From the NCBI GenBank assembly GCA_964461835.1, contig CAYWVO010000014.1:6977-70976 (forward strand): a stretch of DNA of 64,000 bases, written 5' to 3'. A program made the position numbers and the translations under genes. Positions 17,226-62,166 of the stretch are shown here, in pieces; the stretch's first letter is position 1, and each line of letters starts with the position of its first letter. This stretch comes from an uncultured Ignavibacteria bacterium (lineage in GTDB: Bacteria > Zixibacteria > MSB-5A5 > WJJR01 > JAJRUJ01). A model generated the notes under the pieces. The model searched no databases and was not told where the DNA came from. It was given only the letters and a program-made list of their open reading frames with translations.

Positions 17226-17677
17226 GCTGAATTTCCCGTTTTCGTCGGTTCCGCCGGTCGCTTCACGACAATTCGCCGTTGGGTTTCATTGAGCCGTTCA
17301 AAAACAATCAACCAGGTCAACGGTAACTGAGCATCCGGGAGATTTTCCACCCATTCAATGACCACGATTGCCTGGTCACGGGCAATATCTTCAAGCCCTA
17401 AATCCGCGAGCTCCTGCTCATGCCGCACCCGGTAGAGATCGACATGACACAGGGTGGATTCGCCCCGATAGATGTTCACGAGTGTAAAGGATGGCGAAAC
17501 AACCGAATCGGGTATGGCGAGTCCTACGGCCAGTCCCTGCACCCACGTCGTTTTGCCTGCGCCTAACGGCCCGGAGAGACCAATCCAGTCGCCCGGACGT
17601 ACCCGGACGGCAAACGTGCGGGCATGGCGCTGCATCTCGTCGGGCGAGGAGAATGTTGCCTGTTCGACTGCGATCAT
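17222..17677 (-). CDS. tsaE: tRNA t6A37 biosynthesis ATPase TsaE (YjeE).
   Basis: GPLGAGKTT Walker A; 151 aa; ATGA overlap with tsaB. Confidence 0.85.
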   Translation of the reverse strand: MIAVEQATFSSPDEMQRHARTFAVRVRPGDWIGLSGPLGAGKTTWVQGLAVGLAIPDSVVSPSFTLVNIYRGESTLCHVDLYRVRHEQELADLGLEDIARDQAIVVIEWVENLPDAQLPLTWLIVFERLNETQRRIVVKRPAEPTKTGNSA

Positions 17678-19280: not shown

Positions 19281-20570
19281 TTACTGCGACGTCGGCAGTT
19301 CAATAACGAATTCCGTTCGTTCCCCCGGAATACTCTCTGCAATGTAGATACGTCCGTTATGGTATTCTGCAACAATGCGACGTGACAACGTTAATCCGAG
19401 ACCCCAGCCGCGCTTCTTGGACGTCTGACCCGGACTGAACACTTTCTTAGAGATATTGGCGGGTATCCCGCGTCCGTTATCCACCACGCGGATAATTGCC
19501 AGGCCATTTTCTTCGTCATGTTCAAGGCTGACATCGATTTGTCCCGTGCGCGAGTCGACCGCTTCCAGAGAGTTTTTAATGAGGTTTTCCAAGACCCAAC
19601 TGATCAATTCGGCATTGGCCACCGCCGTCACCGGGGTATCCGCCCGAACAGTTAATTTTGCGCCCTTACCCCGGAACGGCAGTCGCGCCCTAAAATATTC
19701 AGCAGTAGAGAGAATGATCTCACGGAGGTCCACTGCTTCGCGATGCGGTTCCGACCCAATCAAGCCAAACCGGTTGGCCACTTGTTCTAACCGCTTGGTA
19801 TCAGTAAACATACGATTTAGAATCTGGTCGATTGAGGCACCGTTATTCGCCTCCATCGAAATTTTTCCACTGCGGTTGCGTTCACGCATAATTTCCAGCC
19901 ACCCCAGCAGCGACGACAAAGGCGTTCCTAATTGATGGGCGGTTTCCTTGGCCATTCCGACCCAGATATATCGCTGTTCGGCTTGCTTAAGATTGCGAAA
20001 ACCGAAATACGCGATCGCCAGGAAGAGGACAACCAGGCCAACCTCCACAAACGGTAACAGTTGCAGGTTGCGAATCAGGCGGTAATTCCCGTAATGGATA
20101 TAGTGCAGTACCTCACCCGCGTAGGTAATTGGAACCGGAGGGTAATGGTCATCCATCGATCTGACAATCCGCCGGACTTTCTCGACCGTTTCCGGATCCC
20201 GCTGGATGTCGGAATCCGGCACTCCTTCCAGTTCACGCCAGTGGAGCGGATTGTTCTGCGGATCGGTCACCACCAGGGGAAACGACCGCTTCTGGATGAT
20301 CTCCTCGAACAGAAAGCCCGTGATGGCTTCCGATTGCGATTCCACCGCCCGCCGCCACTGGTCGGCGTAGTTCATGGCCATCCGCTGTTCGGCGCGCTTA
20401 AGCTGGGTAACGACTGTCTGGGTATACCACGCCAGCACGGCCGCAATAACCGCGACACCAAAGATCAAGAATCCCTTGAAAATCAGCGGTAGGCCGGTGT
20501 ACCCCGTGGGATCGTGGAAAATCATCCAACCGCGATGGCGATGGCTCTTTTGTGACATATCTCTTTGCAC
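19281..20570 (-). CDS. porY: Sensor histidine kinase, PorY-like.
   Basis: Two N-terminal TM helices; H-box ETAHQLGTPLSSLLGWLEIM; G boxes DNGRGIP and GWGLGL. It sits immediately upstream of porX. Confidence 0.75.
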   Translation of the reverse strand: MQRDMSQKSHRHRGWMIFHDPTGYTGLPLIFKGFLIFGVAVIAAVLAWYTQTVVTQLKRAEQRMAMNYADQWRRAVESQSEAITGFLFEEIIQKRSFPLVVTDPQNNPLHWRELEGVPDSDIQRDPETVEKVRRIVRSMDDHYPPVPITYAGEVLHYIHYGNYRLIRNLQLLPFVEVGLVVLFLAIAYFGFRNLKQAEQRYIWVGMAKETAHQLGTPLSSLLGWLEIMRERNRSGKISMEANNGASIDQILNRMFTDTKRLEQVANRFGLIGSEPHREAVDLREIILSTAEYFRARLPFRGKGAKLTVRADTPVTAVANAELISWVLENLIKNSLEAVDSRTGQIDVSLEHDEENGLAIIRVVDNGRGIPANISKKVFSPGQTSKKRGWGLGLTLSRRIVAEYHNGRIYIAESIPGERTEFVIELPTSQ

Positions 20571-21918: not shown

Positions 21919-24255
21919 TCACTTTTGCCGGGAGTCCTGCTCACTCGGTTCGTACATCGGCGGATCGGCCATACTGTAGGTCGGCACGAGTTCGGCCAGG
22001 GCGCGACGCGTAGTGGCGCGGTCCCCGGTCCGTGCGACATCCAGCAAATGTCCCACTTGCTCGCCAAAATCCGACTCCAGCGGTTGATTATCCGGAGCGA
22101 TCATGATCTTGGGGTGCTCGGATGGTTTTCCGCGGGCGCCATTTTCAAACAGGGATTCACTCAGTTTCTCTCCGGCGCGCAGCCCGGTGATTTTGATTTC
22201 GATATCGACACCGGGGGTTAGACCGGAGAGGGCAACCAGATCGGTAGCCAAATCGTAAATGCGCACCGGTTCACCCATATCGAGGACCATGATATCGCCA
22301 GTGTGCCCGATCGCGGCCGCCTGCACGACCAGCAGTGAGGCTTCAGTGCAAGTCATGAAATACCGGGTGACTTCGGGATGTGTAACCGTGACCGGTCCGC
22401 CGGCGGCGATCTGCCGTTTAAACAGCGGTACCACGGAACCCTCGCTCCCCAAAACGTTGCCAAATCGGACCGCTACTACTTTGGTCGAGGAGGCTACGGC
22501 ATAAAACTGCCCCAACATTTCCGCCACCCGCTTCGTGGCCCCCATCACACTGCGTGGGAAAACCGCCTTATCAGTGGAAATCAGCACGAACGCTTGTACA
22601 CCAACGCGCTTGGCCCAGTCCAATAGCAACAACGAACCGCCAATATTGTTCAACACGGCCGCATCGGGGTGTGTTTCCATCAGCGGGACTTGTTTGAAGG
22701 CCGCGGCATGGAATATGATATCCGGCGGGGTTCGCGCGAAGAGTCGTTCGAATCGCGCGCCATCGGTGACATCCGCCACCATAATGCGAAACGGTAAGGT
22801 CGGATATTCTCGCCGCAGTTCATCGGCCAGATCATGCAGGCCGTTTTCCGAGCGATCTACCAAGTCCACCCGGGACGGTGAGAAACGGATCATTTGGCGG
22901 GCCAGTTCCGAGCCAATTGATCCGGCCGCGCCGGTGATCATCACTGCCCGATGTTGCATAAATTCAGATATTTTCGGCGTATCCAGGACCACCGCATCGC
23001 GACGCAGCAAGTCCTCCACCCGCACATCACGCAATTGGTTGACGCTCACGCGGCCATCGATCAACTCTTTCAAGACCGGAACCGTCTTGAATTCCACGCC
23101 GGTCTCCCGGCATTTAGTCACAATCCGTCGCATCTGGGAACCGGTGGCCGAGGGGATTGCAAGCAGAACCTGGTCAACACGATACTGCCGAACGACCGCC
23201 GGCAATTCATCAGTATTGCCCAGCACCGGGACACCATGCAAACTTGTACCCCGCTTAGCGGGATCGTCATCAATGATCCCGACGGGCTGCTGACTGACCG
23301 CCGTGTCCTTCTTTAATTCGCGGACAATCATTTCCCCCGCATCCCCGGCGCCCACCACGAGTACACGCCTGCCCGGATGTAACAGGCGCGGGCTGAATTC
23401 CCGCAATAGTCGGATCACGAACCGGGAGCCACCCAAAAAGACGATCAGCAGGAACCACTCAATGATAAACACCGAGCGCGGATAGCCCGGTACATGGGCA
23501 AAAAAGACCGGCAACACCAGCACCGCCGAGCCGACCGAAACCGCTTTCACGATAGAAACCAGGTCGTTAATTGAGGCATAGCGCCACATACCGCTGTAGA
23601 GTCGGAAATACAGCAGTGCCGCCGTGCGGATGATAATCACCAGCGGTAATGTATTGATAAATAACGCCATCTGCTCCGCCGGGATGTTACCGTCGAATCG
23701 CAACCAGAAAGCCAGAAAATACGCCGTGATAATCAAGGCCAGGTCGGTGATCAAAATCAGGAGTCGCCGGCGATAGGTGCCCTCCCAAGCACCGGTTTCC
23801 GGACCCGGCACGGGATCGAGGCGACGATACACCCACCAGCGCGGAACGCCCAAGAGCAACACGAGCGCCGCCCAGTATCCCAACAGGACACCGCGGGTGG
23901 TGGTGACCGGCTCGACCGGATCGAACGTCAATACCGCAATCGCCAATGTCCCGAACGTCACGGCATTAAAGACCCGGGTGAACTGTCGGAAAGGTGTGGT
24001 CACGGTGCGATGACGATAGACGCCGAACAGCGCCAGCAGGATCACCCAGCCCACGGTCAGGTAAAGTGCCGGGACACCATAATCCGCCAATTGAATTTCC
24101 ACGCTGGGCGGACTGAACCACGGTGAGCGGTAGCGAATCCAATAGACCCCGGCGAGAGCAACCTGAAATACAGCCACATCCCAGAGAACCCACCACCACA
24201 TCTGATTCGCGGATAGTCTTCTCACGTTGCGCTTGTCCATCTCGTTCCCTGCCAC
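21919..24255 (-). CDS. Membrane-anchored NDP-sugar 4,6-dehydratase/epimerase of the PglF/WbpM/CapD family.
   Basis: Multi-TM N-terminal half; Rossmann VMITGAAGSIGSEL; extended SDR catalytic region. 778 aa, so longer than typical; the true start may be internal. Confidence 0.8.
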   Translation of the reverse strand: MAGNEMDKRNVRRLSANQMWWWVLWDVAVFQVALAGVYWIRYRSPWFSPPSVEIQLADYGVPALYLTVGWVILLALFGVYRHRTVTTPFRQFTRVFNAVTFGTLAIAVLTFDPVEPVTTTRGVLLGYWAALVLLLGVPRWWVYRRLDPVPGPETGAWEGTYRRRLLILITDLALIITAYFLAFWLRFDGNIPAEQMALFINTLPLVIIIRTAALLYFRLYSGMWRYASINDLVSIVKAVSVGSAVLVLPVFFAHVPGYPRSVFIIEWFLLIVFLGGSRFVIRLLREFSPRLLHPGRRVLVVGAGDAGEMIVRELKKDTAVSQQPVGIIDDDPAKRGTSLHGVPVLGNTDELPAVVRQYRVDQVLLAIPSATGSQMRRIVTKCRETGVEFKTVPVLKELIDGRVSVNQLRDVRVEDLLRRDAVVLDTPKISEFMQHRAVMITGAAGSIGSELARQMIRFSPSRVDLVDRSENGLHDLADELRREYPTLPFRIMVADVTDGARFERLFARTPPDIIFHAAAFKQVPLMETHPDAAVLNNIGGSLLLLDWAKRVGVQAFVLISTDKAVFPRSVMGATKRVAEMLGQFYAVASSTKVVAVRFGNVLGSEGSVVPLFKRQIAAGGPVTVTHPEVTRYFMTCTEASLLVVQAAAIGHTGDIMVLDMGEPVRIYDLATDLVALSGLTPGVDIEIKITGLRAGEKLSESLFENGARGKPSEHPKIMIAPDNQPLESDFGEQVGHLLDVARTGDRATTRRALAELVPTYSMADPPMYEPSEQDSRQK

Positions 24256-24383: not shown

Positions 24384-25802
24384 TCATGATCGGGCAGTCG
24401 TAGTCGTCGCCCCTTCGGGCAGTGTTTCCAGCACATCCGATCGTTCGGTCATTGCGCGGGCCACCTCTGCCGTGATCAGCCCGCGTTTGGCCAATTGTCG
24501 CAAAGACACATCAAACCCGTGCATACCTGCCGCGCTCCCTGTTTGAATCAAGGTCGGCAGTTGACTTAATCGCATATCCCGAATGACAGCGCGGACCGCC
24601 GGTGTGCCGATCAGAACTTCGGTCGCGACTGCCAACCCGGCGTTATCAGCCCGCGGCAGCAGCCGCTGGCAGACGATCCCGCGCAGGCCGCCGGCAAGCT
24701 GCACCGCTGCTTCCTGACGCTGGTCCGGGGGATATAAACCCAAGATGCGGTGGATGGTTTGCGTGGTATTTGAGGTATGCAGGCTGGTGAGAACGAGGTG
24801 TCCGGTCTCGGCGGCATTGAGCGCCACGGAAAGCGTTTGCCGATCACGGATTTCGCCGATGAATATCACATCCGGGTCCTGCCGCAGCAGGTTCTTTAAA
24901 CCTAAGCTGAAAGACCGGGTATCCCGGCCAACTTCCCGTTGCTTGACCACGGAGCGCTTGCCGGGATGAATAAATTCAATCGGATCTTCCAGGGTAATAA
25001 TGACTTTGCGAAACTCGGCATTAATCAAGTCAATCATGGCCGCCAGCGTCGTACTCTTGCCTACCCCGGTCGGTCCGGCAACGATCACTAATCCATCCGG
25101 CAACCGTGCCAAATCATTGACCACCGGCGGTAATCCCAAACGTTCCAGCGATTTCACCTCCAAATCAATCGCCCGATACGTTGCTTCCACTACTCCCTGC
25201 TGGAAATGCACATTCACCCGCCAGCGACCGATATCCGGAATCGTCAAGGCGAAATTGGCCTCCCGCATCAATTCGAACTGTCGTACCTGCTCGGCATCCA
25301 TAACCGAGTAAACGAGCCGTTTAATCTGATCGGCAGAGAGTACCTTGGTTCCCTGGGGAAACAACTCTTTCTGGATCCGAAACAGCGGCGGTCGCCCAAC
25401 GGAGAGGTGCAAATCGGACGCCTCCTTATCCAGCATGCTGGATAAGAGATTGATAATATCAATTGACGAGATATGCTGACGTAATTTCGCCCGGGTATTC
25501 TCATCCAGTACATCGAATTGGACACCGACAAAATACCCCTCCTCACCACGTTCGGTGATGTGTACCACCCGTGCTTCAAACTCCAGTACCATCTGCGGAT
25601 GTGGAATCGGCAAGGTGAAGTTTAATTCGCTGCCGATGGGCAATCGTTCTGCGGTGAAGAACCGCATGCCGCTGAATGAGATATCCTTGGTGTACCCACG
25701 AATATCCCTGGTCTGGCTTTTTAGACGGTAGGTCAGGGCATAGTCGGTTTGGATACGGCGTTCCGTACGTCGTTCCTCACCACAAAAATCTGGGGATACC
25801 AT
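24384..25802 (-). CDS. pilT: Twitching-motility ATPase PilT with an N-terminal PilZ (c-di-GMP-binding) domain.
   Basis: PilZ motifs RRTERR and DISFSGMRF in the first ~110 aa. PilT/PilU core follows, with Walker A GPTGVGKST. ATG 25802 preceded by GGAGGA; the ORF is open to TTG 25835. Confidence 0.85.
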   Translation of the reverse strand: MVSPDFCGEERRTERRIQTDYALTYRLKSQTRDIRGYTKDISFSGMRFFTAERLPIGSELNFTLPIPHPQMVLEFEARVVHITERGEEGYFVGVQFDVLDENTRAKLRQHISSIDIINLLSSMLDKEASDLHLSVGRPPLFRIQKELFPQGTKVLSADQIKRLVYSVMDAEQVRQFELMREANFALTIPDIGRWRVNVHFQQGVVEATYRAIDLEVKSLERLGLPPVVNDLARLPDGLVIVAGPTGVGKSTTLAAMIDLINAEFRKVIITLEDPIEFIHPGKRSVVKQREVGRDTRSFSLGLKNLLRQDPDVIFIGEIRDRQTLSVALNAAETGHLVLTSLHTSNTTQTIHRILGLYPPDQRQEAAVQLAGGLRGIVCQRLLPRADNAGLAVATEVLIGTPAVRAVIRDMRLSQLPTLIQTGSAAGMHGFDVSLRQLAKRGLITAEVARAMTERSDVLETLPEGATTTTARS

Positions 25803-25905
25803 GCAATCCTCCGGTTGCTTCGCGAAAACGGACAAACCTCAGGACCGGATCGGTCCTGCTCTCAGTATCGGCTGTCGACACGAAATGATTCAATCACCAA
25901 CGAAG

Positions 25906-28113: not shown

Positions 28114-30120
28114 TTACTGCAGGGCCAATTCACCGGAAATTCGTTCGACTCGAACGATACGATCCAATGGTCGCAGCCGCTTAACGACATCCATTCCCTC
28201 AACGACTCTGCCGAATGACGACCACCGAAAATCGGAGAACGGTTGGCGAATGAGAGAAATACCAAATTCGCTGCGTGCGTCATGCCCGAGGTTGATGCGC
28301 CAGTAGAGAATTCCTCGTTCGAGTCGACGCATGGTCTGTTCATTGCGCACCGTTTCCAGGCCCGTGCCCCATCCGTCACCGCGCCGGTCACCGATAAAAA
28401 TCGTTCGCCCGTCATCATGCGGGTTAACCGGGGAATCATCGTAGAATCCCGCTTCGACATAGTCCAAAAAATGGCGCACCGAGCGCGGCGCTGCATCATC
28501 AAACAATTCCACGACAAACGTTCCTTTCGCAGTCACGACCCTGACACGCGGTCGCGGGGTGTCGGCATGATAGAGGTCGGCATAAGTCACGGCCGTGATG
28601 TCTGTTTCAAACGTCCCCACTTCATCCCAGCGATTTTCGCGGAATTTTTCCCAGACGGCTGCGGCGTAGTAGCGAACGTGACGGTCAGGATCGTTAATCC
28701 CGGCGTTGAAGATTTGTCGCTGGACCGGCCCCACCTGCACCGAGGGTGACAAATTGGCGGTCAGGGCCAAAATGGCCATGCGCATGTCCGACCGTTCATC
28801 CTGTTGGTGATGCTTGTACAACGTCAGCAATGAATCAAACGTCAATCGCCCGTTGGCAAACGGCAACACGTTGTAGGCCAGGTACCGCACGAAGGGATCG
28901 GGGTCGTTCAACGCGTCCTGAATCGGCCCCTGAATAGCACCACGAAACGCCAAGGCAGAGCGGACGGCTGCTCCCCGAACCGCCGGCACAGAATCTTGCA
29001 GGAGATCTTTGACTACCGCAGTTGCTTCTTCCGTCAGGCCCCATTTGGGTTGAGCGAAAAACTCTAACTGTTTGGGAACCGCGGCACGTACCGGCCAGGC
29101 CGGGTCCTTCGCCAATTGTTTTAGATACGGGAGCGACTCATTCTGCAGCGCCCGCATGAACCCGTCCGCTAAGCGCACACGCACGCCGATATCCGGGTGG
29201 TCCAGCAGTTTTTCAAACTCCGGCGCTGCCGATCGCTGCCAATGGTAGCCAACGGCAAAGACTAATTGGGTGAGGATACCGGGATCTTCCATCGAGCGGA
29301 GATAGGAATACACGTCCTCCAGCCGGGTCGTGTCTCGCAGGGCGCCGATCCCCATGACCGCCCCGTAGCGAACATACCGGTTCGGGTGATCCAGCAGTTG
29401 CACTAACAACGGTTGGTAGTCGAAATCGCCGGCGTTTCCCAGCGCCATGGCGGCTGCGGCGACGACATCCTGTTTGGGATCATCCAGCAATTCCGCAATA
29501 TCGTCGGCCAACAACGGTGATTTGAGTCGGGTCAGGGCCTGACATGCATATTCCCGAACCATCGGCTCAGGATCGTCCAGTAAGGCGGCAACTTTCTCTG
29601 TGGCATTTCGGTTCACCACTCCTGCCTGGTACAGCGTTGCCTGGGCGCGGACACGTGGATCGTCATGCTGCAAAAACGTCACGACGCTGTCACCATACTT
29701 CTTGGCGTAGAGCCGCCGCAGTGTCCATAGCAGATATTGGAGGGTGGTCGAATTGGTCTCTGTGAGCGTGTGACGGTAAACCGAGTCGGTTGCTGATTTC
29801 TTGCGCAGCGTTCCCAGCGCGAACGCCGCCCGTGCCCGTACGATGGTATCCGGATCAGCGAGTGTATTCACCAAGGCGCTGACTGCAAGCGTATCACCAA
29901 TTCGCGCCGCGGCGAGCGCAGCGCGCCGGCGGACCGTGGGGTTGTCGTCGGTTAAAAAGGTCAACAACTCGCCGTCGTGGAGCGTGGCCTGGTCCTCCCA
30001 GATTGCAATCTGGATCAATTTGCTCTCATCTACTCCTCCGCCGGAACAGCCACCTATCAGCAATATGCCGAAAATCCCTGACAGGAGAATCACTCGCCGA
30101 TATCGCTGGAATTTGGTCAC
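28114..30120 (-). CDS. HEAT/PBS-lyase-repeat lipoprotein with a C-terminal cyclophilin-type peptidyl-prolyl isomerase domain.
   Basis: Lipobox LLIGGCSGGG; multiple DPDxxVRxxA HEAT-like repeats. C-terminal ~170 aa match the cyclophilin fold (VVELFDDAAPRSVRHFLDYVEAGFYD...FGRVVEGMDVV). Confidence 0.7.
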   Translation of the reverse strand: MTKFQRYRRVILLSGIFGILLIGGCSGGGVDESKLIQIAIWEDQATLHDGELLTFLTDDNPTVRRRAALAAARIGDTLAVSALVNTLADPDTIVRARAAFALGTLRKKSATDSVYRHTLTETNSTTLQYLLWTLRRLYAKKYGDSVVTFLQHDDPRVRAQATLYQAGVVNRNATEKVAALLDDPEPMVREYACQALTRLKSPLLADDIAELLDDPKQDVVAAAAMALGNAGDFDYQPLLVQLLDHPNRYVRYGAVMGIGALRDTTRLEDVYSYLRSMEDPGILTQLVFAVGYHWQRSAAPEFEKLLDHPDIGVRVRLADGFMRALQNESLPYLKQLAKDPAWPVRAAVPKQLEFFAQPKWGLTEEATAVVKDLLQDSVPAVRGAAVRSALAFRGAIQGPIQDALNDPDPFVRYLAYNVLPFANGRLTFDSLLTLYKHHQQDERSDMRMAILALTANLSPSVQVGPVQRQIFNAGINDPDRHVRYYAAAVWEKFRENRWDEVGTFETDITAVTYADLYHADTPRPRVRVVTAKGTFVVELFDDAAPRSVRHFLDYVEAGFYDDSPVNPHDDGRTIFIGDRRGDGWGTGLETVRNEQTMRRLERGILYWRINLGHDARSEFGISLIRQPFSDFRWSSFGRVVEGMDVVKRLRPLDRIVRVERISGELALQ

Positions 30121-37946: not shown

Positions 37947-39689
37947 ATGTCACCATTTGCTCAAAACGTATCATTGGTGAGGCGAACAATGACCACAACC
38001 AGTGTTGTTCGACTTGGTGATTTATTGGTCAGCCATGGCCGAATTACCGAACACGAACTCTCCCAGGCGCTCAAGCAGCAAAAGGCAACCGGCCGGCGCT
38101 TGGGGGAAATTCTGATTGAGAATGGCACGATTACCGAACATGATCTGGTCGATGTTCTCTCCGAGCGTCTCGGAATTCCCAAGATCGGCATCGAAGGACT
38201 GGTCGCTGATCCGGCAGTTGTTAATATAGTTCCGTTGCGAATTGCCAAGAAATACCGGGTAGTCGCGCTCTTTAAAATCAATGAGAGACTCACTGTCGCG
38301 ATGGCCGACCCGCTGGATATGGTCGCCATCGACGAAATTCGCTATCAGACCGGCCTAACTGTCAATCGCGTGATCGCGGCGCCCTCGGATATCGACGAAG
38401 CCATTGCCACGTTTTACACTGTTGCCGACAATGTCGAGCGGGTCATTCAGGATGTCGCCGCGTCGACGGCCCCAACAATTGAGCGTGGGGACGGCGACGA
38501 TTCGCCCGCCGTTCGGTTGGTGGACGTATTGCTGACCGAGGCAATTCGGCAGCAGGCATCAGATATTCACATCGAACCGGTCGAGGATGCACTCCGGATT
38601 AGATTCCGCATTGACGGGGTACTCCACGAGGAAGCAGAGCCCCCGGCCAATTTGCATGCCGCCATCGCCTCACGCATCAAGGTGTTGGCATCCATGGACG
38701 TCTCGGAAAAACGGATCCCTCAGGACGGCCGTTTCTCCATGGCGCCGGACCAGGACTCGGTAGATCTTCGCGTATCGACCATTCCGACCATCCACGGTGA
38801 GAAAGTTGTCATTCGGGTACTGGGACGCCGCGGACAGAGTCTCGATCTGGATGATCTGGGCTTGGCTGAAAAGCAGCTCGCGATCTTCCGTGAGGAAATC
38901 CAATCCTCTGAGGGCATGATTCTGATCTGTGGGCCGACCTCCAGCGGAAAAACCACTACCTTGTATTCCATCCTCAAACATATAACAACGCCGGAAAAAA
39001 ACATCGTGACCGTGGAAGATCCGGTTGAATACGCGTTAAAAAACATTAACCAGGTGCAGGTCAACGAGAAAGCCGGGCTCACGTTCCCGGTGTGTCTGCG
39101 GGCGTTTTTGCGGCAGAATCCAGATGTGATCATGGTGGGGGAGGTACGTGACAGTCCTACCGCACAGATCGCGATTCGGGCGGCAATGACCGGCCACCTG
39201 GTGCTCTCAACGTTGCATACAATCGACGCCGCCGCCGCGCCTCATCGGCTGATTGACATGGGCGCGGAACGCTATCTGGTCGCCACGGCACTGCGGACAG
39301 TTATTGCTCAGCGTTTAGTGCGTCGGCTGTGCTCCAAATGCGCCGAATCGGTTGTTCCTTCGCAGACGTTACGCGAACAACTGGGTTTCTCGCTCGAGGA
39401 GGAGAGCGGTGAGTGGCGACAGGCTGTGGGGTGTCAGTCTTGTCGCGGTACCGGCTATGACGGACAGGTCGGGATATACGAACTGTACACCGTTGATGAT
39501 GCCGTGCGGACAATGATTGCCGAGGGAATTGGAGCCACACAACTGCGCGACCATCTGCGGGGTCTCCCCCAGTTTTCCGATCTACGAGAGCAATCCCGGG
39601 CATTAGTCACTCAGGGCATCACCACCGCCGAAGAAATCATTCGCGTGGTCCCCCGCCGGGCAGACGTGTGGGAGCATATCGCTGATTAA
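37947..39689 (+). CDS. pilB: Type IV pilus/T2SS assembly ATPase (PilB/GspE family) with an N-terminal MshEN-type domain.
   Basis: Tandem MshEN-like motifs RLGDLLVSHGRITEHEL and LGEILIENGTITEHDL. Walker A GPTSSGKTT. C-terminal tetracysteine CSKC...CQSC. ATG 37947 with GAGGG RBS. Confidence 0.85.
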   Translation: MSPFAQNVSLVRRTMTTTSVVRLGDLLVSHGRITEHELSQALKQQKATGRRLGEILIENGTITEHDLVDVLSERLGIPKIGIEGLVADPAVVNIVPLRIAKKYRVVALFKINERLTVAMADPLDMVAIDEIRYQTGLTVNRVIAAPSDIDEAIATFYTVADNVERVIQDVAASTAPTIERGDGDDSPAVRLVDVLLTEAIRQQASDIHIEPVEDALRIRFRIDGVLHEEAEPPANLHAAIASRIKVLASMDVSEKRIPQDGRFSMAPDQDSVDLRVSTIPTIHGEKVVIRVLGRRGQSLDLDDLGLAEKQLAIFREEIQSSEGMILICGPTSSGKTTTLYSILKHITTPEKNIVTVEDPVEYALKNINQVQVNEKAGLTFPVCLRAFLRQNPDVIMVGEVRDSPTAQIAIRAAMTGHLVLSTLHTIDAAAAPHRLIDMGAERYLVATALRTVIAQRLVRRLCSKCAESVVPSQTLREQLGFSLEEESGEWRQAVGCQSCRGTGYDGQVGIYELYTVDDAVRTMIAEGIGATQLRDHLRGLPQFSDLREQSRALVTQGITTAEEIIRVVPRRADVWEHIAD

Positions 39690-39720
39690 TAGTAACTCTT
39701 TCACTCCCTGAGGATTCCTG

Positions 39721-40932
39721 ATGCCAACCTTCAAATTTGAAGCCGCGGACAGCCAGGGAGTTCGCTCACGAGGGCACCTTTCCGCGGCGACTCATGATGC
39801 GGCCGGGGCAATCCTCCAGCGACAGGGAATGATTCCACTTACTCTCAAGCCGGTGAGTGAGGGGATCAAATGGTGGCCATTGAATGCCAGAGGCCCCCGG
39901 TGGTCACTGGAAAACAAAATTCTGTTTACGCGGAAGTTTGGCTCTCTCTTGCGCGCCGGAATCCCCTTGCTGACGCTGCTGGATATGATTGCGCGCCAGA
40001 TGCGTGCACCACAGATCTCAGTGGCCCTCCACACAGTCCGCGATCGCATTGCGGGTGGCGAACCGCTGGCCGAAGCCCTGGCTGCCTACCCTACCCTGTT
40101 CGACCCGGTCTATCTCGGTGCGGTGAAAGCGGGAGAAGCTACCGGCAGGCTCGATACCGTCCTGGAGCATACTGCTGCTTATCTGGAACGGGAACTGGAA
40201 ACGCGTCGCCGCATCAAAGAAGCGATTCGGTATCCGATCATGGTCATTATCGCGCTGATTGCGGCTGCAATTATCGTGCTGCGCTTCGTCGTCCCCAAAT
40301 TTGCCGGTTTTTACAATAATTATGGGGGCGAATTGCCAGTACCGACTCAGATGCTCATGTTTGCGGCGGATTTAGTCGGTCGCCTGTGGTGGTTGTCCAT
40401 ACCGGTCGCTGCACTCGTAGGCCTTGTAGTCTGGTGGTTACATGGGACGGAACCTGGTCGGGTCTGGCGGGATCGTCAACTATTGCGACTACCCTTAATT
40501 GGTGTCTTGTTCATCAAAGTGGCGGTCAGCCGTTTTGCCCGGCTTTTTGGGGTCCTCTTTTCAGCGGGTCTCCCGACAACGGAGGCGCTTAACACAACCA
40601 CCGCCGGTGTTGGCAATCGCACGATTGCCGCCGAGGTCGCCGCTCTGGGCCGACACATTACCGGTGGGGGATTAATTACCGGCTCCCCCCCGGGGTCGGT
40701 GATGCCTGACCTCGTCTACCAAATGATTTCAATCGGGTTTGAGTCCGGTGACGTCGATGGCATGTTGAGCGAGGTCGCCCGGCACTATGAGCAGGAAATT
40801 GATTACGATGTACGGAACTTGACCGACCGTCTGCAACCAATACTCTTAGTCTTTCTCGCTACCGGTGTCCTAGGGCTGGCGCTCTCGGTCCTGTTGCCGC
40901 TCTGGAATCTGATGAGCATCTTCCGTGGTTAG
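39721..40932 (+). CDS. pilC: Type IV pilus/T2SS platform protein (PilC/GspF).
   Basis: 403 aa; duplicated GspF domains; 3 TM. Confidence 0.85.
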   Translation: MPTFKFEAADSQGVRSRGHLSAATHDAAGAILQRQGMIPLTLKPVSEGIKWWPLNARGPRWSLENKILFTRKFGSLLRAGIPLLTLLDMIARQMRAPQISVALHTVRDRIAGGEPLAEALAAYPTLFDPVYLGAVKAGEATGRLDTVLEHTAAYLERELETRRRIKEAIRYPIMVIIALIAAAIIVLRFVVPKFAGFYNNYGGELPVPTQMLMFAADLVGRLWWLSIPVAALVGLVVWWLHGTEPGRVWRDRQLLRLPLIGVLFIKVAVSRFARLFGVLFSAGLPTTEALNTTTAGVGNRTIAAEVAALGRHITGGGLITGSPPGSVMPDLVYQMISIGFESGDVDGMLSEVARHYEQEIDYDVRNLTDRLQPILLVFLATGVLGLALSVLLPLWNLMSIFRG

Positions 40933-41057
40933 CTCCGTTAGCGCTTACCGTTCAGCGGTGCCACCCGATAAGATTTTTTTCGACCTGACCGATAATAGAA
41001 ATGACCTTAGCCGGTCGAGTGGTGGAGGATAGTAAACTTTTAACAGGAGTGATCCGC

Positions 41058-41495
41058 ATGCGTCAAGTTCGTGGGTTAATGCGCAACCCTGCCGGTTTTA
41101 CGCTGATCGAGCTGGTGATCATCATCGTGGTTCTGGGAATTTTGGCCGCGGTGGCGATCCCGAAATACTTCGACATGGTGAGCGATGCCAAAGAATCGGC
41201 CTGTCGTGGCGCATTGGGGGGCCTGCGCTCAGCGGTATCAATCTGGTATGCCAAAGAAGCCTTGGAGACGGGAACGGCAAGTTGGCCGCCGATTGACTCG
41301 CTGCAGACTGTCGGGATTGTCATGGAACAAAGCATTCCGCCCAATCCGTACCAGTCCGATGACAGCGCGCCGGATTCGATTGTCACCGGCGTGACCAAAG
41401 GTACGACAGTCGGTAGCCGGGGCGGCTGGGCCTACAACCCGTCGACCGGTGAGATCTGGCCGAACACCTCGGTTGCCGGTGAGAACAACTGGTAA
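41058..41495 (+). CDS. Type IV pilin (major pilin candidate).
   Basis: Prepilin N-methylation motif GFTLIELVIIIVVLGILAA. 146 aa. ATG 41058 with AGGAG RBS. Confidence 0.8.
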   Translation: MRQVRGLMRNPAGFTLIELVIIIVVLGILAAVAIPKYFDMVSDAKESACRGALGGLRSAVSIWYAKEALETGTASWPPIDSLQTVGIVMEQSIPPNPYQSDDSAPDSIVTGVTKGTTVGSRGGWAYNPSTGEIWPNTSVAGENNW

Positions 41496-41613
41496 TTGCA
41501 GGTCGACCGAGACGGACGGATTTTCTTTGGAACGTACCGGGTTCAGTAGCGACAATGAGCCCGTCTTTCGTCCCACCATCTTCCCCAGGTGGATCGGCTG
41601 GAGAGGTGTCGGC

Positions 41614-42057
41614 ATGTTCGGGATGAGCCATCGCCATCTTTGCTCGCGCCATGGCTTCACGCTGATTGAGCTGGTCATGGTCATCCTGGTACTGGGAATT
41701 CTTTCCGCGGTTGCCATTCCCGTGATTGGATCATTGTTCGGATCATCAGAAGTAACGGTCACGCGGGAGGAGATGCGGCGGTTGGCAGTCGCAATCAGCG
41801 GCTCGGATCCAACTCGAGACCGCGGGTACGAGGGTGATGTTGGCTACCTGCCGGGATCGCTGGCGGATCTGGTAAGTAAACCGGATTCGGTCGCGGCCTG
41901 GAACGCCTATCAACATGTCGGTTGGAATGGACCCTATATCGATGGGGCCGATAGTGAATACCTAACTGACGCCTGGGGCACGGCTTATATCTATAATCCC
42001 TCGGCGCGGACTATCGCCAGCGTCGGTTCGGGAGATACGATTACCATTACGTTTTAG
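41614..42057 (+). CDS. Pilin/pseudopilin-like protein.
   Basis: HGFTLIELVMVILVLGILSAVAIP class III signal. GGAGAGG RBS. Confidence 0.75.
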   Translation: MFGMSHRHLCSRHGFTLIELVMVILVLGILSAVAIPVIGSLFGSSEVTVTREEMRRLAVAISGSDPTRDRGYEGDVGYLPGSLADLVSKPDSVAAWNAYQHVGWNGPYIDGADSEYLTDAWGTAYIYNPSARTIASVGSGDTITITF

Positions 42058-42065
42058 GCGGGAGC

Positions 42066-43235
42066 GTGAAGGCATTGCGGTACAGACCCACGGACGTCGG
42101 CGACGGATTCACCCTGATCGAAATCCTGATGGTGGTTGTAATCCTGGGAATCCTCGCAACGGTGGCCCTACGCTCTGTGCAGTCCACAATTGAGAGTTCA
42201 CGCGTGTCGGAAACGCAAAAGGAAATGGAACACCTTTCGCACGCTATCGCCGGGAATCCAAATCTCTACAACAACGGCATGCGTTCCGATTTCGGATATG
42301 TCGGCGACGTCGGTGCGGTACCTGCCATTCTCGACGATTTGTTGAGCAATCCCGGCGGCTATGCCACGTGGGACGGTCCGTACGTTTCCGGCCGGTTCAC
42401 CGAGGATGCCGCCGGCTTCAAGACAGACGCCTGGGGTAACGCATATTCTTTCACCAACGGTATCACCATCTCGTCAACTGGTGGTGGCTCAACCCCCCTC
42501 ACCACCTCTGTCGCCTCGGCCGCCAGCGATCTCACAGCAAATCCGGTCGCTGGTTCGCTTACCGATGCCGCAGGCAATCCACCGGGCGATTCGGCGGTCG
42601 CTATTGATGTGATCATCGATTACCCCGACGGGGTCGGGAGTATGACTTCCTCAACCGTCAATCCTAATTCCGGTGGGGGATTCACATTCTCCGGTATCCC
42701 AATCGGCAATCATCTGGTGCGGGCGATCTATCGGGCAACCGATGATACGGTAACTGCTTACACCTCCGTGCTGCCGCGGACCGGCAGTACGTTGACGTTG
42801 CGTCTACCGGGAGACCCGTTTGCTGGAGGGGGCGGAGGCGGGGGCGGCGGCACACCAGGTTCTATTGAATACGTGGAGGGATCAGCCGCTACCACTGGGA
42901 TATTCAATGACGACGTGGAGTTTGATATCATCAACCCCGGCGATGAGGAAGTGACGATCACCTGGCTGATCGCAGAATTCAGCCCCACTGCCTACTTCCA
43001 GCGTATCCGGTGGGGCGGCGCAAATGTTTTCAATGAATCTAATCCCAAGGCGGCCAGCGGCGATACCTGTGTATTCACCTCACCGCAAGCGCTTGGCGCC
43101 GGGTCCTCAGTGGAGATTGATTTGGAGGATTTTCGCGACAGTCCGGTCGGCGGTTGGGGGGTCGATATGTCGAACACCGATTTCACGATCACCTTTTCCG
43201 ATGGATCGGCCATCACTTTCAATAGCGGAACATAA
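42066..43235 (+). CDS. Large pilin-like protein (minor pilin or tip-associated).
   Basis: DGFTLIEILMVVVILGILATVAL N-terminus; Gly-rich linker GGGGGGGG; ~250-aa C-terminal domain. GTG start. Confidence 0.7.
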   Translation: MKALRYRPTDVGDGFTLIEILMVVVILGILATVALRSVQSTIESSRVSETQKEMEHLSHAIAGNPNLYNNGMRSDFGYVGDVGAVPAILDDLLSNPGGYATWDGPYVSGRFTEDAAGFKTDAWGNAYSFTNGITISSTGGGSTPLTTSVASAASDLTANPVAGSLTDAAGNPPGDSAVAIDVIIDYPDGVGSMTSSTVNPNSGGGFTFSGIPIGNHLVRAIYRATDDTVTAYTSVLPRTGSTLTLRLPGDPFAGGGGGGGGGTPGSIEYVEGSAATTGIFNDDVEFDIINPGDEEVTITWLIAEFSPTAYFQRIRWGGANVFNESNPKAASGDTCVFTSPQALGAGSSVEIDLEDFRDSPVGGWGVDMSNTDFTITFSDGSAITFNSGT

Positions 43236-43271
43236 GAAAGCATAATGGAATTTCATTCAGAGTAACGTACC

Positions 43272-44966
43272 ATGGCGGCCGAATCGAATGAACTTTTGCG
43301 GGTTGAACGGACCGAGTCCGCGAAGCCACCGGTAATCGACTCGACGGCTGATGTGGGTCCGGACAATTTCGTCCTCGACCAGGAACCGGAGCAGACTGAG
43401 CCGACACAGCGGATTCGCTGGCAGGATAATCACCGCAAGCGCTTGGCAAGTATCGGCATTGAGTTCGATGGACAGCGCTTGACCGTGGTCGGGTTGTACG
43501 GACGAGGCAGGAAAAAGCGATTCGGCCGGCTGGCCAGGTGTGAATGGCCAAAGACTCCCTCACGAGATGCCCTGATTTCCCAACTGCGCGGATTCATGCT
43601 CAATCAGCATACGCCCATTCATCTGGTTTTAAGTACCCCGCGGGGTATCGTCCGACGGTATCTCATCCCCCAACTGCCACGAGCGAAGCGGCGACAGGCG
43701 GCAATCTGGGAGGGCAAACAACTGGTGCCGTTCCCGCTCGATTATGAGCACGCACTCTTTGGCTTTCATTTTCAGAATGTCGCGAGAAAACAGTGCCAAG
43801 TAACTTTGGTGGCACTGCCTCGGAGTGACGCGGGGGGCATCATTGAGGCTCTCCTCCGGATTGGTATTCCCATTAACAGCATTGTTCTCTCCGGCACGCA
43901 AAATCCTCCCCGATACGAACGGGGAGGCTTAAGCCACCCAGAGGGTATCGATGCCGTCGTCCTTTGTTCACCCAGCCGGGCAGCCTTTGTCGCTTTTGCC
44001 GGGGACAATATCACGTTTCACTATGACCTCGGCGCCCTGCCGGTGCAGACCGGGAGCATTGCCGGGACGCAACCACAACCGAGTGATAATGCCTTTTCCT
44101 GGATCTTTGAATTACGGCCAATGATTTCCGATGCGCTTGATTTTTTCACCAGCAGCCATCCCAACGTGACGTTGACCCATTTGCATGTCGTGGGGATGGA
44201 CGAATCACTGGCTCCACATCTTACCGAGTTAGCGGAACGATTTACCGAAGGAATCGAAGTCGTAAATCCACTCCTGGATTTTTCCGCATCGCTCCCCGAT
44301 GATTTTCAAGAATGGATTCGAAAGAACATCGGCGCATTTACGCCGGCGTCACTCGCCGCCGCCGGGCGTCCGGCGATTGATCTGTCGCCATCACACCTCC
44401 GGTGCGATCGGTGGAATCTACGGTTGATTAAGTATGCTCGCACGGCGTTTATCGTCTCACTGGCCGTGATCGCAGCGGTTACCGGTCTGCTGGTGCAACA
44501 TCTTCTGGCCAGGCAGCAGGCGGTTGACTTGGCTCGACGTGAACTCCACCAATTGCAAAACTCACCACCGGTTCAAAACGTGACCGGCGCGATGACCAGC
44601 CTGATTGAGTATCAGGCATTTGCGTCATCTCTTGATGAACGGCCAGAACGATGGATGCCCTGGCTAAAAACCATGTTTGCCACTATGCCACTTAATTGCC
44701 GTCTGGATCTTCTGACTGTCGAGCCGACTCCCGTGCCAGATGCCGAGGCAGCCCTGAGAATTCGCCTGGCCGGATCATTAAGTCCCGAGAGCACACCGCA
44801 CGCGGTCAACTATCATTCCTGGTTGACCGATCTTGAGCGATTGGCCGGCCCAGGGAATGTTGAGTTGGCGGACGAACGTCGCATCAACTGGAAAGGGCGA
44901 ACCCGTTCAGCGTTTACCATTATTCTGACTCCACCACGCAGTCGGGTACTGGGGGAGAACCGATGA
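43272..44966 (+). CDS. pilM: PilM-like actin-fold ATPase fused to a PilN-like TM/coiled-coil segment.
   Basis: Position in the cluster plus a single TM (FIVSLAVIAAVTGLL) followed by a periplasmic segment at the C-terminus. 564 aa, longer than PilM alone. Confidence 0.6.
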   Translation: MAAESNELLRVERTESAKPPVIDSTADVGPDNFVLDQEPEQTEPTQRIRWQDNHRKRLASIGIEFDGQRLTVVGLYGRGRKKRFGRLARCEWPKTPSRDALISQLRGFMLNQHTPIHLVLSTPRGIVRRYLIPQLPRAKRRQAAIWEGKQLVPFPLDYEHALFGFHFQNVARKQCQVTLVALPRSDAGGIIEALLRIGIPINSIVLSGTQNPPRYERGGLSHPEGIDAVVLCSPSRAAFVAFAGDNITFHYDLGALPVQTGSIAGTQPQPSDNAFSWIFELRPMISDALDFFTSSHPNVTLTHLHVVGMDESLAPHLTELAERFTEGIEVVNPLLDFSASLPDDFQEWIRKNIGAFTPASLAAAGRPAIDLSPSHLRCDRWNLRLIKYARTAFIVSLAVIAAVTGLLVQHLLARQQAVDLARRELHQLQNSPPVQNVTGAMTSLIEYQAFASSLDERPERWMPWLKTMFATMPLNCRLDLLTVEPTPVPDAEAALRIRLAGSLSPESTPHAVNYHSWLTDLERLAGPGNVELADERRINWKGRTRSAFTIILTPPRSRVLGENR

Positions 44967-45541
44967 GACGACCATCCGCCTGGCTCATCTGGACCGGTGC
45001 CGCGCTGGCCGTGTGGATCATCTGGGGATTGCTAATAGCAATGACTGTGCAACGCTCGCTTTCGGACCTTGCGCAGGAACGTGATACACTCAAGAGCGAA
45101 ACCGCCAAAGCCACGGCATTGCTCGCCAACGCGCCCCTGGTTGCCCGACGTCTGGATTCTCTCGGCACATCCCTGCAGAAGACGACGCAACGATTCTACT
45201 CTCTCGAAGAACTGCGGCAATTGGAAGCAGCGGTACAACGGCCAGCGAATGATCATGACATAGCCGAGACTTCGGTTGAGTTGGAATTAAACTCAGTTCT
45301 TGATTTGCAGCAATCCCCTCCGGGCGACATTCCCCGGATCGACACGGTGGGTATCAACGTTTCCGCCCATGGCGACTTTCAGGCAATCGGCCGGTGGCTG
45401 GATGATATCGAGCAACGTGTCGATTTCACACAATGGAGGGGCGCCCGCTGGGAAAATGGAAACAAGGTGAACATGGTGACTTTTGCCGGCATTGCGGCCT
45501 TCCGGATTGCAGTCAATCGCTGGGATGCGGCGGAAAGATGA
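44963..45541 (+). CDS. pilO: PilO-like/GspM-like inner-membrane pilus assembly protein.
   Basis: Single N-terminal TM, coiled-coil, periplasmic domain. ATGA overlap with the upstream gene. Confidence 0.6.
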   Translation: MRRPSAWLIWTGAALAVWIIWGLLIAMTVQRSLSDLAQERDTLKSETAKATALLANAPLVARRLDSLGTSLQKTTQRFYSLEELRQLEAAVQRPANDHDIAETSVELELNSVLDLQQSPPGDIPRIDTVGINVSAHGDFQAIGRWLDDIEQRVDFTQWRGARWENGNKVNMVTFAGIAAFRIAVNRWDAAER

Positions 45542-45554
45542 CCGGATAAGAACG

Positions 45555-46049
45555 ATGAACGAACCCACCCGAAAAAAAGTGCTTTTTGTCGTGTTGATCG
45601 CCGCCGTGATGTTTGCGCTGGTCATGCAGCCCTGGAAGAGCGATCCTCCCCAACGCAGCGAACCTGAAGCCGATGGGTCTTTAACCCCATCAGCACCCGC
45701 GGCCGTGGCAACTATGGTCCAACCGCCGCAACGGGTATCCACCGGAGATCATCCGCACATCGAATTTTCGCACACCTGGCCGGAAAATCCATTCAATGAC
45801 CCATTTGCCGACGAGAGCCTTGCGGCGGTATCAACTGTCCCTTCGCTCGGCGAAGACCTGCAATTACAAGGAATTTTGTCCACCAACGGGCAGCGGGTAT
45901 GTGTGATCAACGGTCAAACCTATGAAACCGCCATGACGGTTCAGGGATGGCGCATTGTGGAGATACAAAACTCCGCTGTCCTGCTGCAACGCAAAGGCAA
46001 CACCCGGAAGATGGTGCTCCCTGAACCAGAGACGGGGCAGGAAAGTTGA
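45555..46049 (+). CDS. pilP: PilP-like lipoprotein/pilot.
   Basis: N-terminal TM/signal. C-terminal beta domain LQGILSTNGQRVCVINGQTYETAMTVQGWRIVEI, typical of PilP/GspC homology regions. Confidence 0.6.
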   Translation: MNEPTRKKVLFVVLIAAVMFALVMQPWKSDPPQRSEPEADGSLTPSAPAAVATMVQPPQRVSTGDHPHIEFSHTWPENPFNDPFADESLAAVSTVPSLGEDLQLQGILSTNGQRVCVINGQTYETAMTVQGWRIVEIQNSAVLLQRKGNTRKMVLPEPETGQES

Positions 46050-46050
46050 G

Positions 46051-47355
46051 ATGAAACTACGACACCGGATATCGACACTCTTTCTCGGCTTGGCGATTTT
46101 GCTCGGGATTTTATTGGCGTCATTCGCCAAAGCAAAACCGCCGCCCCAGGAGGTAACCATCCACTTCGCTCAGACTGAGATAGCAACGATCATCGTCTCC
46201 CTCGCTGCCACGGTCGGTTTTGACGTGGTCATCGGCACGGGTGTTGATGGCATCATTGATATCAATTTGACGGACGTTGACTGGCAAACTGCGCTCGACG
46301 CGCTGGCCTCAGCCAATGGTCTTGCCTACCGCTGGGAAGCAAACGTGCTTGTCGTGGTCTCGGCAGACAATCGGAACCGGGGAGATATTGAGCACCATGT
46401 TGTCGAGTTGGAACACGCCGATCCGCTCGCAATCCAACAAGCACTAACTAAGGTCCTCTCCTCGCGCGGAAGCGTGGAACTGCTCGGTGGACAGCCAAGC
46501 GCCGCGATCGAGGGTCAAAAACCAGCGGCACGACTGATTATCAGCGAAGTGCGACATCATCTGCCGGCAGTCCTGGCGGTGATCGACGATCTCGATGTCA
46601 GGCGTCCGCAGTTTGAGATTACCGTTAAGTTCATCGAAACAGACTTAGACGAGCAGGAGGGCTTGGGAATAAACTGGCCCACTCGCTTGACTGCCAACCT
46701 TGCCGATTACGAAAATCTCGATGGGACCACGAGCGATCAGAATCAACCAACACCTGCAGCAGAATACAATATTCCCGATGGGAAAATCTGGAAATTGGGG
46801 ACACTGTCGATTAATCAACTGACCGGGTTCATTGAATTTCTTGAACAGGACGGCAATTCGCGTTTGTTGTCCGATCCTCGGGTCACCGTGCTGGAGAACG
46901 AGACCGCCAATATGCGGGTCACCACTACTTTCCCGATTCAAACCGTGACACGGTTTACGGAAGGCGCCATCATCCAGGACATTGTGGATTTTCAGGACCT
47001 GGAAGTCGGGATTACTCTGTCAGTAACTCCCCGGCTCAATGATTCGACCACGATCACCCTGGATGTAGAGCCGGTAATCGAGGAAATCACCGGGTTCACC
47101 GGCCCAACCGACAACCAGCGTCCAATTCGTGCCCGGCGAACCGTAAAAACCACGGTGCGGGTCGAGAACGAGGAGACCATCGTTCTGGGTGGATTGGTGC
47201 GTGAGACACAGTTTCAAACACATTCTGGGATCTGGTTGCTCAAGGATATCCCACTCCTGGGTTCCGTATTTTCCCACACCAAGACCGAGAAAAAGAAGAC
47301 CGATCTGCTTATTTTCATCACCCCACGCATTGTCGCAGAATTCGCAGGCAGTTGA
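46051..47355 (+). CDS. pilQ: Secretin (PilQ/GspD family).
   Basis: Signal peptide, N-domains, and C-terminal secretin core ending LLIFITPRIV. AGGAAAG RBS. Confidence 0.85.
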   Translation: MKLRHRISTLFLGLAILLGILLASFAKAKPPPQEVTIHFAQTEIATIIVSLAATVGFDVVIGTGVDGIIDINLTDVDWQTALDALASANGLAYRWEANVLVVVSADNRNRGDIEHHVVELEHADPLAIQQALTKVLSSRGSVELLGGQPSAAIEGQKPAARLIISEVRHHLPAVLAVIDDLDVRRPQFEITVKFIETDLDEQEGLGINWPTRLTANLADYENLDGTTSDQNQPTPAAEYNIPDGKIWKLGTLSINQLTGFIEFLEQDGNSRLLSDPRVTVLENETANMRVTTTFPIQTVTRFTEGAIIQDIVDFQDLEVGITLSVTPRLNDSTTITLDVEPVIEEITGFTGPTDNQRPIRARRTVKTTVRVENEETIVLGGLVRETQFQTHSGIWLLKDIPLLGSVFSHTKTEKKKTDLLIFITPRIVAEFAGS

Positions 47356-62100: not shown

Positions 62101-62166
62101 CGTGTATCGAATACAACCCGGCAGGCAGTGTCCAAGCACTGTCTGCCTTGATTGGGGGTACCATTC

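Follow-up and report, generated by a model that had tools for sequence, protein, structure and literature searches.

Control of type IV pili (T4P) by cyclic di-GMP (c-di-GMP) is established, and where it is known it acts either on the extension side of the machine, through MshE and PilB ATPases with an MshEN domain or through FimX, PilZ and PilB, or on transcription. The regulation of retraction is, to our knowledge, much less clear than that of extension. PilZ domains occur fused to many output domains, and c-di-GMP bound by a PilZ protein is generally gripped by the RxxxR loop on one side and the DxSxxG strand on the other, which reorients PilZ relative to adjacent domains or partner proteins. 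Here, we describe a gene at positions 24384..25802 (minus strand) of a 64,000-nucleotide stretch of contig CAYWVO010000014.1 (the window), which encodes a 472-aa protein in which a PilZ domain precedes a PilT-family retraction ATPase. A retraction ATPase with its own c-di-GMP receptor offers a one-polypeptide system for asking whether the second messenger gates retraction directly, and the domain architecture suggests that c-di-GMP does act directly on pilus retraction.

In two studies of MshE, c-di-GMP controls the dynamics of pilus extension and retraction through this extension ATPase (PMC7096442, PMC5013675). According to the main review of the domain (10.1101/814665), a PilZ domain that is part of a fusion protein has in every case kept its ability to bind c-di-GMP. 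The words “PilT” and “ATPase” do not occur in that review, and no PilZ-PilT protein is described in a recent review of PilB regulation (PMC11656802). No description of such a fusion was found in the full-text literature searched, which was limited to open literature, and the phrase “PilZ-PilT” was absent from it.

A PilZ domain in front of a PilT-family ATPase

The longest open reading frame (ORF) at this position in the ORF list is 24384..25835 (minus strand), which has a TTG start and encodes 483 aa; the gene as given above begins at an internal ATG and ends with the stop codon at 24384-24386. A Shine-Dalgarno-like sequence, GGAGGA, lies 5 nt upstream of the ATG, and in the alignment the start codons of orthologues fall no more than one residue from it. 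The ATG is therefore the better start. The reading frame is unbroken, with no stop codon and no frameshift. A scan for promoters and terminators around the gene gave nothing above shuffle expectation.

Residues 10-111 (25470..25775, minus strand, as are all features of the fusion gene) form the PilZ domain. They match the Pfam profile PF07238 over positions 1-100 of 102 and score 65.7 bits against a gathering score of 22.5 (E=5.1e-18). The RxxxR motif, R12-T-E-R-R16 (25755..25769), is part of the string RRTERR at residues 11-16 and lies in a disordered N-terminal loop. The (D/N)hSxxG motif, D40-I-S-F-S-G45 (25668..25685), is read from the translation as DISFSG and begins the string DISFSGMRF at residues 40-48. 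Across 22 aligned orthologues (52-70% identity), R12, R15, R16, D40, S42 and G45 are all invariant, and the predicted ligand-binding residues of the domain are under strong purifying selection.

Two AlphaFold2 models were built. The model of residues 1-152 has a predicted local distance difference test (pLDDT) of 77, with most of residues 17-100 between 80 and 93. The full-length model has a pLDDT of 76 and a predicted template modelling score (pTM) of 0.55, and pLDDT falls below 50 at residues 1-14. Both models give a disordered RxxxR loop, six strands within residues 17-96 (17/21-96 in the two models) and a helix from residue 101, that is, a six-stranded beta-barrel with a C-terminal helix. 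In both, this helix runs into the helix of the PilT N-terminal domain at residues 116-125 with a break of at most one residue. On these models the connection between PilZ and PilT is short and helical, and probably stiff.

When the N-terminal model was compared with the PDB using Foldseek, every match at E<=0.001 was a PilZ domain, as were almost all of the best 45 (probability 1.00). Most of these are complexes with c-di-GMP, and they include MotI/DgrA (5vx6, E=2.5e-5), YcgR (5y6g), BcsA (4p00), Alg44 (4rt0), MapZ (5xly) and PA4608. In searches of the PDB by sequence, phmmer with the PilZ domain alone returned only chance matches to Mre11, and residues 1-112 were covered by no solved chain. 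In our judgement, the N-terminal domain probably binds c-di-GMP.

Residues 116-454 (24441..25457) form a PilT-family ATPase with a PAS-like N-terminal domain and a RecA-like C-terminal domain. It matches the NCBIfam PilT/PilU model TIGR01420 with 410.1 bits against a cut-off of 319.1, over profile positions 2-340 of 343, and Pfam T2SSE (PF00437) at residues 117-387 (E=1.6e-42). The Walker A motif, GPTGVGKS (25053..25076), is conserved in the alignment of 22 orthologues. Invariant in the same alignment are L271, E272, D273, P274 and E276 of the Asp box, LEDPIE (24975..24992), as well as D309, P310, G316, E317, R319 and D320 of the Walker B motif with its catalytic Glu, DPDVIFIGEIRD (24843..24878). 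The His box, read from the translation, is TGHLVLTSLHT (24774..24806) and is likewise conserved among the aligned orthologues.

The sequence AVRAVIRD (24576..24599; family consensus TPAVRAVIRD) resembles AIRNLIRE, the canonical motif of Pseudomonas aeruginosa PilT that sets PilT apart from PilU. The likeness to this motif is inexact, with four of eight residues identical and conservative I/V, L/V and E/D changes. In a phmmer search of the PDB, residues 113-460 gave end-to-end alignments with solved PilTs (E 1e-82 to 6e-88), namely those of Thermus thermophilus (5fl3, E=6e-88), Geobacter metallireducens (PilT4, 6ojx), P. aeruginosa (3jvu) and Aquifex (2ewv). By its motifs the ATPase part is a catalytically intact PilT, and formation of a hexamer and retraction of pili are predicted for it.

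The original prediction, made from the letters of the DNA and a list of its ORFs, had read the first ~110 residues as a PilZ domain with both signature motifs, followed by a complete PilT-type ATPase. Both halves of this reading are borne out by the profile scores, whose E-values chance does not account for, the motifs and the match to solved PilTs. The point on which the prediction had staked itself, that the N-terminal domain would not fail the PilZ profile, was decided in its favour, and structure prediction of this domain gave a fold that matches c-di-GMP-bound PilZ structures.

Distribution and descent of the fusion family

A search of 5.8 billion proteins returned an identical NCBI protein and, within the top 120 matches, about 25 proteins of 474-490 aa with both PilZ and T2SSE domains. 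Named database members of the family are called only “twitching motility protein PilT”, even where PilZ and T2SSE are present as precomputed Pfam matches. At the junction, I114 and D115 are invariant in the 22 orthologues, as are the catalytic residues. Since its hosts are mainly from uncultivated or little-studied phyla and it is annotated only as PilT, the family has probably been overlooked.

A genome scan, carried out on one genome per GTDB species with a generic PilT junction pattern (ASDLHL), gave a lower bound on the taxa that carry the fusion. A PilZ-like N-terminus was found before PilT in at least one Zixibacteria, one Ignavibacteria, three Planctomycetes and three Omnitrophota metagenome-assembled genomes (MAGs). 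All seven of the listed proteins from outside Zixibacteria passed the Pfam PilZ profile (28-47 bits) and T2SSE, and all had kept both PilZ motifs. The survey of related genomes that the original prediction had proposed thus recovered the same architecture in all four groups. Two further apparent N-terminal matches from the scan were rejected, one being a PilB and the other an ordinary PilT preceded by a spurious ORF.

An exhaustive search with a hidden Markov model (HMM) of the N-terminal profile against 1.84 billion cluster representatives (50% identity) gave 437 proteins at E<=1e-10. Among the best 150 of these 437 were 33 full-length PilZ-PilT proteins (450-514 aa) and about 20 fragments that span the junction. 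In a neighbour-joining tree built from ATPase cores only, the PilZ-bearing PilTs without exception formed one clade, apart from ordinary PilT, tandem PilT-PilT and PilB/GspE. Taken together, the invariant motifs, the recurrence in several phyla and the single clade of ATPase cores indicate that the fusion had a single origin and that selection on its putative ligand-binding residues has been sustained.

The family is not uniform in its ATPase part. The Walker B catalytic Glu is absent from many distant members (10 listed), and often the His box as well; the same proteins have RxxxR in every case and D/NxSxxG in about half. To judge from these sequences, the degenerate members look like c-di-GMP-binding pseudo-ATPases. 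The subfamily to which the protein in the window belongs has kept all catalytic residues.

The strongest homologues that are not fusions are PilTs of ~720-750 aa, about twice the usual length and perhaps tandem PilT-PilT proteins. Most are unnamed, and those with names come mostly from Myxococcota (Chondromyces, Polyangiales).

Genomic context and the pilus-like cluster

The closest orthologue (70% identity) is from “Candidatus Zixiibacteriota bacterium DeMMO3_3”, where the gene order is nearly identical on both sides of the fusion gene. The common order is an MBL-fold (metallo-beta-lactamase) hydrolase, PilZ-PilT, a WbpM-like Polysacc_synt_2 protein, SerRS, a histidine kinase, a REC-PglZ protein and TsaE; the window's small EamA gene has no called counterpart at the DeMMO3_3 locus. 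On this synteny, the window most probably belongs to a Zixibacteria genome. Six ORFs at 15.1-21.9 kb were assigned solely by comparison with the syntenic Zixibacteria locus. Housekeeping genes flank the fusion gene, which is an orphan, and in the next clade of the fusion (53% identity) its housekeeping context is different. No second PilT was found among the window ORFs scanned with Pfam and NCBIfam.

Directly downstream of the fusion gene is a 778-aa WbpM/CapD-like polysaccharide biosynthesis protein (21919-24255, minus strand) with Polysacc_synt_2 and CoA_binding_3 domains. A functional link between these two neighbours was considered and dropped, as their adjacency is kept within Zixibacteria only and is lost in the next clade.

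The window also contains a pilus-like gene cluster (37947-47355), all on the plus strand. It begins with a PilB-like assembly ATPase (37947..39689) that has an N-terminal MshEN domain (Pfam T2SSE 444 bits, MshEN 70.3 bits). The NCBIfam scores of this ATPase for PilB (571 bits) and GspE (540 bits) are both below cut-off. In the PDB it matches full-length PilB of the type IVa pilus (T4aP) with 481 bits (5zfr, residues 20-568) and GspE with 357 bits.

A 53-residue tandem MshE-type c-di-GMP motif occupies residues 22-74 of the assembly ATPase (38010..38168). The NCBIfam model NF053729, “cyclic di-GMP-binding domain, MshE-related”, matches residues 22-73 with 73.8 bits against a cut-off of 38. The motif reads RLGDLLVSHGRITEHELSQALKQQ-KATGR-RLGEILIENGTITEHDLVDVLSER, with 24-residue motifs at residues 22-45 and 51-74 and a 5-residue spacer; two 24-residue motifs and a 5-residue spacer were defined for Vibrio cholerae MshE in the original study (PMC5013675). 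The spacing agrees with that definition, and so do 22-23 of 24 positions. Both the strict and the published relaxed pattern fail at position 11 (R33, T61), where a hydrophobic residue is expected and R or T is found, and motif II ends in R rather than Q. Once position 11 is freed, the MshE pattern matches.

The tandem motif that the original prediction had assigned to this ATPase is thus upheld by the profile. The prediction had gone on to call the control of extension and retraction motors together unusually complete. This description holds for a recurrent family present in at least four phyla, but it is not special to this genome.

The assembly ATPase is followed by a platform protein of the PilC/GspF family (39721..40932), with two Pfam T2SSF domains and scores for GspF (303 bits) and PilC (249 bits) that are both below cut-off. 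Three prepilin-type proteins come next (41001..43235), each with Pfam N_methyl; neither Pfam nor NCBIfam detected a T2SSG (GspG) domain in any of them. Two putative alignment-complex genes occupy 43272..45541. One of them encodes a weakly PilM-like protein of 564 aa (43272-44966), which has no Pfam or NCBIfam match and a weak PDB match to PilM (2ych, E=8.5e-4). The other encodes a weakly GspM/PilO-like protein of 192 aa, which matches the GspM model NF040576 with 35 bits against a cut-off of 60. The last gene is a secretin of the PilQ/GspD family (45955..47355; Pfam Secretin E=7.5e-43; NCBIfam GspD 177 bits, PilQ 173 bits). An ORF of 188 aa within the cluster (45483-46049) gave sub-threshold Pfam matches only; it and the 564-aa protein may be divergent components of the alignment complex. 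No prepilin peptidase was found within the window.

A type II secretion system (T2SS) was considered as an identity for the cluster. It is disfavoured, though not settled, by prepilins without a GspG domain, an ATPase closest to PilB and the weak match to PilM. From the sequences we lean towards a T4P-like machine, with all equivalog scores for T4P and T2SS components below cut-off.

Elsewhere in the window, a response-regulator receiver domain is fused to PglZ in one of two adjacent genes (17674-19236 and 19281-20570, both on the minus strand), and the other encodes the histidine kinase; this pair is kept in a related Zixibacteria contig. A 668-aa protein (28114-30120, minus strand) joins an array of HEAT repeats to a cyclophilin-type peptidyl-prolyl isomerase and is kept in a Zixibacteria relative. 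A VWA-domain protein adjoins an AAA_5/Mg-chelatase-like ATPase (51469-52566 and 52588-54072, both on the minus strand), as in pairs of the MoxR-VWA type. On the plus strand, a protein of 1890 aa (56428-62100) contains four HYR_4C domains together with BACON_2, Cohesin, FlgD_ig and Por_Secre_tail, and it is followed by a second Por_Secre_tail protein (62152-63495). These two proteins are probably cargo of type IX secretion, and the presence of several Por_Secre_tail proteins in the window fits an organism of the Fibrobacteres-Chlorobi-Bacteroidetes (FCB) group, to which Zixibacteria belong.

Proposed regulation of retraction and comparison with known systems

The explanation that we favour, and consider reasonably probable, is that the fusion protein is a catalytically competent PilT hexameric ATPase with a ligand-competent PilZ domain, belonging to a multi-phylum subfamily of single origin, and that c-di-GMP acts on the motor. 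In this mechanism, c-di-GMP would be held between the flexible R12-R16 loop and the D40-G45 strand of the PilZ barrel. On the N-terminal face of the PilT hexamer, the ligand would shift the PilZ barrels, whose C-terminal helix would transmit the movement to the motor, which is conceivable because this helix is nearly continuous with the first PilT helix. As a result, the hexamer might change either its ATPase cycle or the way it docks to the PilC/PilM socket at the pilus base. That binding of c-di-GMP regulates pilus retraction in one direction or the other is, in our judgement, somewhat better than an even chance.

At high c-di-GMP, retraction would be inhibited and pili would stay extended for attachment. 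The same signal might stimulate the MshEN-bearing, PilB-like ATPase at 37947-39689, so that extension and retraction would come under reciprocal control. Inhibition is the direction we favour, tentatively and by analogy, because of the precedent of V. cholerae MshE, where high c-di-GMP goes with surface piliation. In this organism, high c-di-GMP favours surface piliation via MshE, and lowering c-di-GMP reduces surface pili (PMC7096442; review PMC11656802). We infer that the cluster in the window is the machine served by the fusion motor.

Several observations weigh against this explanation. The full-length model is of moderate confidence and represents a monomer only, and the tree of ATPase cores has no bootstrap. 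The direction of regulation is not readable from the sequence. Degenerate ATPase motifs occur in the wider family together with a retained PilZ domain, and therefore some members may be regulators and not motors. No homologues of PilB, PilC or the secretin were found within 6-10 kb of the fusion gene at nine related loci, and no GGDEF, EAL or HD-GYP domain was found among the window ORFs scanned. The cluster, which the original prediction had called nearby, does share the window with the fusion gene but is 12 kb away; FeoB, an SPFH protein, pyrR/pyrB/pyrC, endonuclease III (EndoIII) and others, some 12 unrelated housekeeping genes in all, lie between them.

The structural and motif evidence would serve equally well if the sign of control, which the sequence does not fix, were the opposite. 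The c-di-GMP-bound PilZ domain might activate or recruit the retraction motor, for example by bringing PilT to the pilus base, and so draw the cell tight to the surface. Co-activation is conceivable in view of V. cholerae, in which PilT-dependent retraction is needed for efficient assembly of the MSHA (mannose-sensitive haemagglutinin) pilus, according to a review (PMC11656802). We nevertheless regard activation as unlikely, since the general logic of c-di-GMP and the MSHA precedent link high levels to extended pili and low levels to retraction (PMC7096442, PMC11656802), a guide by precedent only.

Another reading would have PilZ act as a ligand-independent adaptor for protein-protein docking, like the stand-alone PilZ proteins (PA2960/XAC1133) that bind PilB. 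Non-binding PilZ partners of T4P ATPases are well documented (PMC8389850, PMC11461919), and parts of DxSxxG have been lost in some distant members of the family. However, such non-binding proteins characteristically lack the two binding motifs, which are invariant here and in 22 of 22 orthologues. The Foldseek matches are to canonical PilZ domains with a C-terminal helix, and retention of binding in fusions is the rule according to the review cited above (10.1101/814665). We consider a pure adaptor improbable.

The idea that the neighbouring pilus is not the one this protein retracts deserves somewhat more weight than the adaptor, although we still think it fairly unlikely. The protein might instead be a paralogue that serves another filament, DNA uptake, secretion or signalling, or a PilU-like accessory. 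Many bacteria have several PilT paralogues (PMC11656802). The fusion gene is an orphan at all loci examined, the pilus cluster is below the equivalog cut-offs for PilB and GspE, and pseudo-ATPase members exist in the wider family. Against this, the protein has an inexact AIRNLIRE-like sequence and not a PilU-type one, the solved structures nearest to it are of bona fide PilTs, and the ATPase of the cluster is closest to full-length T4aP PilB. Genes for PilT are commonly unlinked to pilus operons, which also tells against a separate role.

There is only a negligible chance that the fusion is an artefact, a small pilZ gene having been joined to pilT by an error of assembly or gene calling. A MAG is the probable source, and the closest relative is a Zixibacteria MAG. 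Yet the frame is continuous, I114 and D115 at the junction do not vary among the orthologues, and over 30 independent clusters, which come from several data sources and at least four phyla, have the same junction.

Returning to direct control of the retraction motor by c-di-GMP, a wider version may be put forward, for which we would claim something short of even odds. PilZ-PilT would be an ancient subfamily of retraction ATPases with a single origin, present in Zixibacteria, Ignavibacteria, Planctomycetes, Omnitrophota and others, in which c-di-GMP binds the motor itself. In that case its PilZ domain would be the first second-messenger receptor to sit directly on a T4P retraction motor. Here the fusion would be paired with an MshEN-bearing PilB, so that one signal sets extension and retraction reciprocally, and the degenerate members would depend on c-di-GMP and compete for the pilus base without acting as motors.

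The PilZ-PilT family is real and conserved and, it appears, uncharacterised, and it extends principles that are familiar from known systems without adding a new one. With the solved PilTs (3jvu, 6ojx, 5fl3, 2ewv) the fusion protein has in common the Walker A motif, Asp box, Walker B motif and His box and, less exactly, the AIRNLIRE-like motif; these proteins start at the PAS-like N-terminal domain with no extension, whereas the fusion protein has a 112-residue PilZ domain before the motor. The likeness to MshE and PilB proteins with MshEN, such as V. cholerae MshE (PMC5013675, PMC4624772), is an N-terminal c-di-GMP receptor on a hexameric ATPase of a type IV filament. In MshE, however, this receptor is the helical MshEN with its 53-residue motif on an extension motor, and in the fusion protein it is a PilZ beta-barrel with RxxxR and DxSxxG on a retraction motor.

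The brakes or clutches of the flagellar motor, YcgR and MotI (DgrA), are the best fold matches of the N-terminal domain and resemble the fusion protein in that a c-di-GMP-loaded PilZ domain modulates a motility motor. They act in trans on the flagellar stator or rotor, whereas in the fusion protein PilZ is a covalent part of the pilus motor ATPase. Similarly, the PilB-PilZ-FimX system, with its stand-alone PilZ (PA2960/XAC1133), has a PilZ-fold protein physically associated with a T4P motor ATPase. In that system (PMC8389850), PilZ is without binding motifs and acts in trans; by contrast, the PilZ domain described here has its motifs intact and is placed in cis on PilT.

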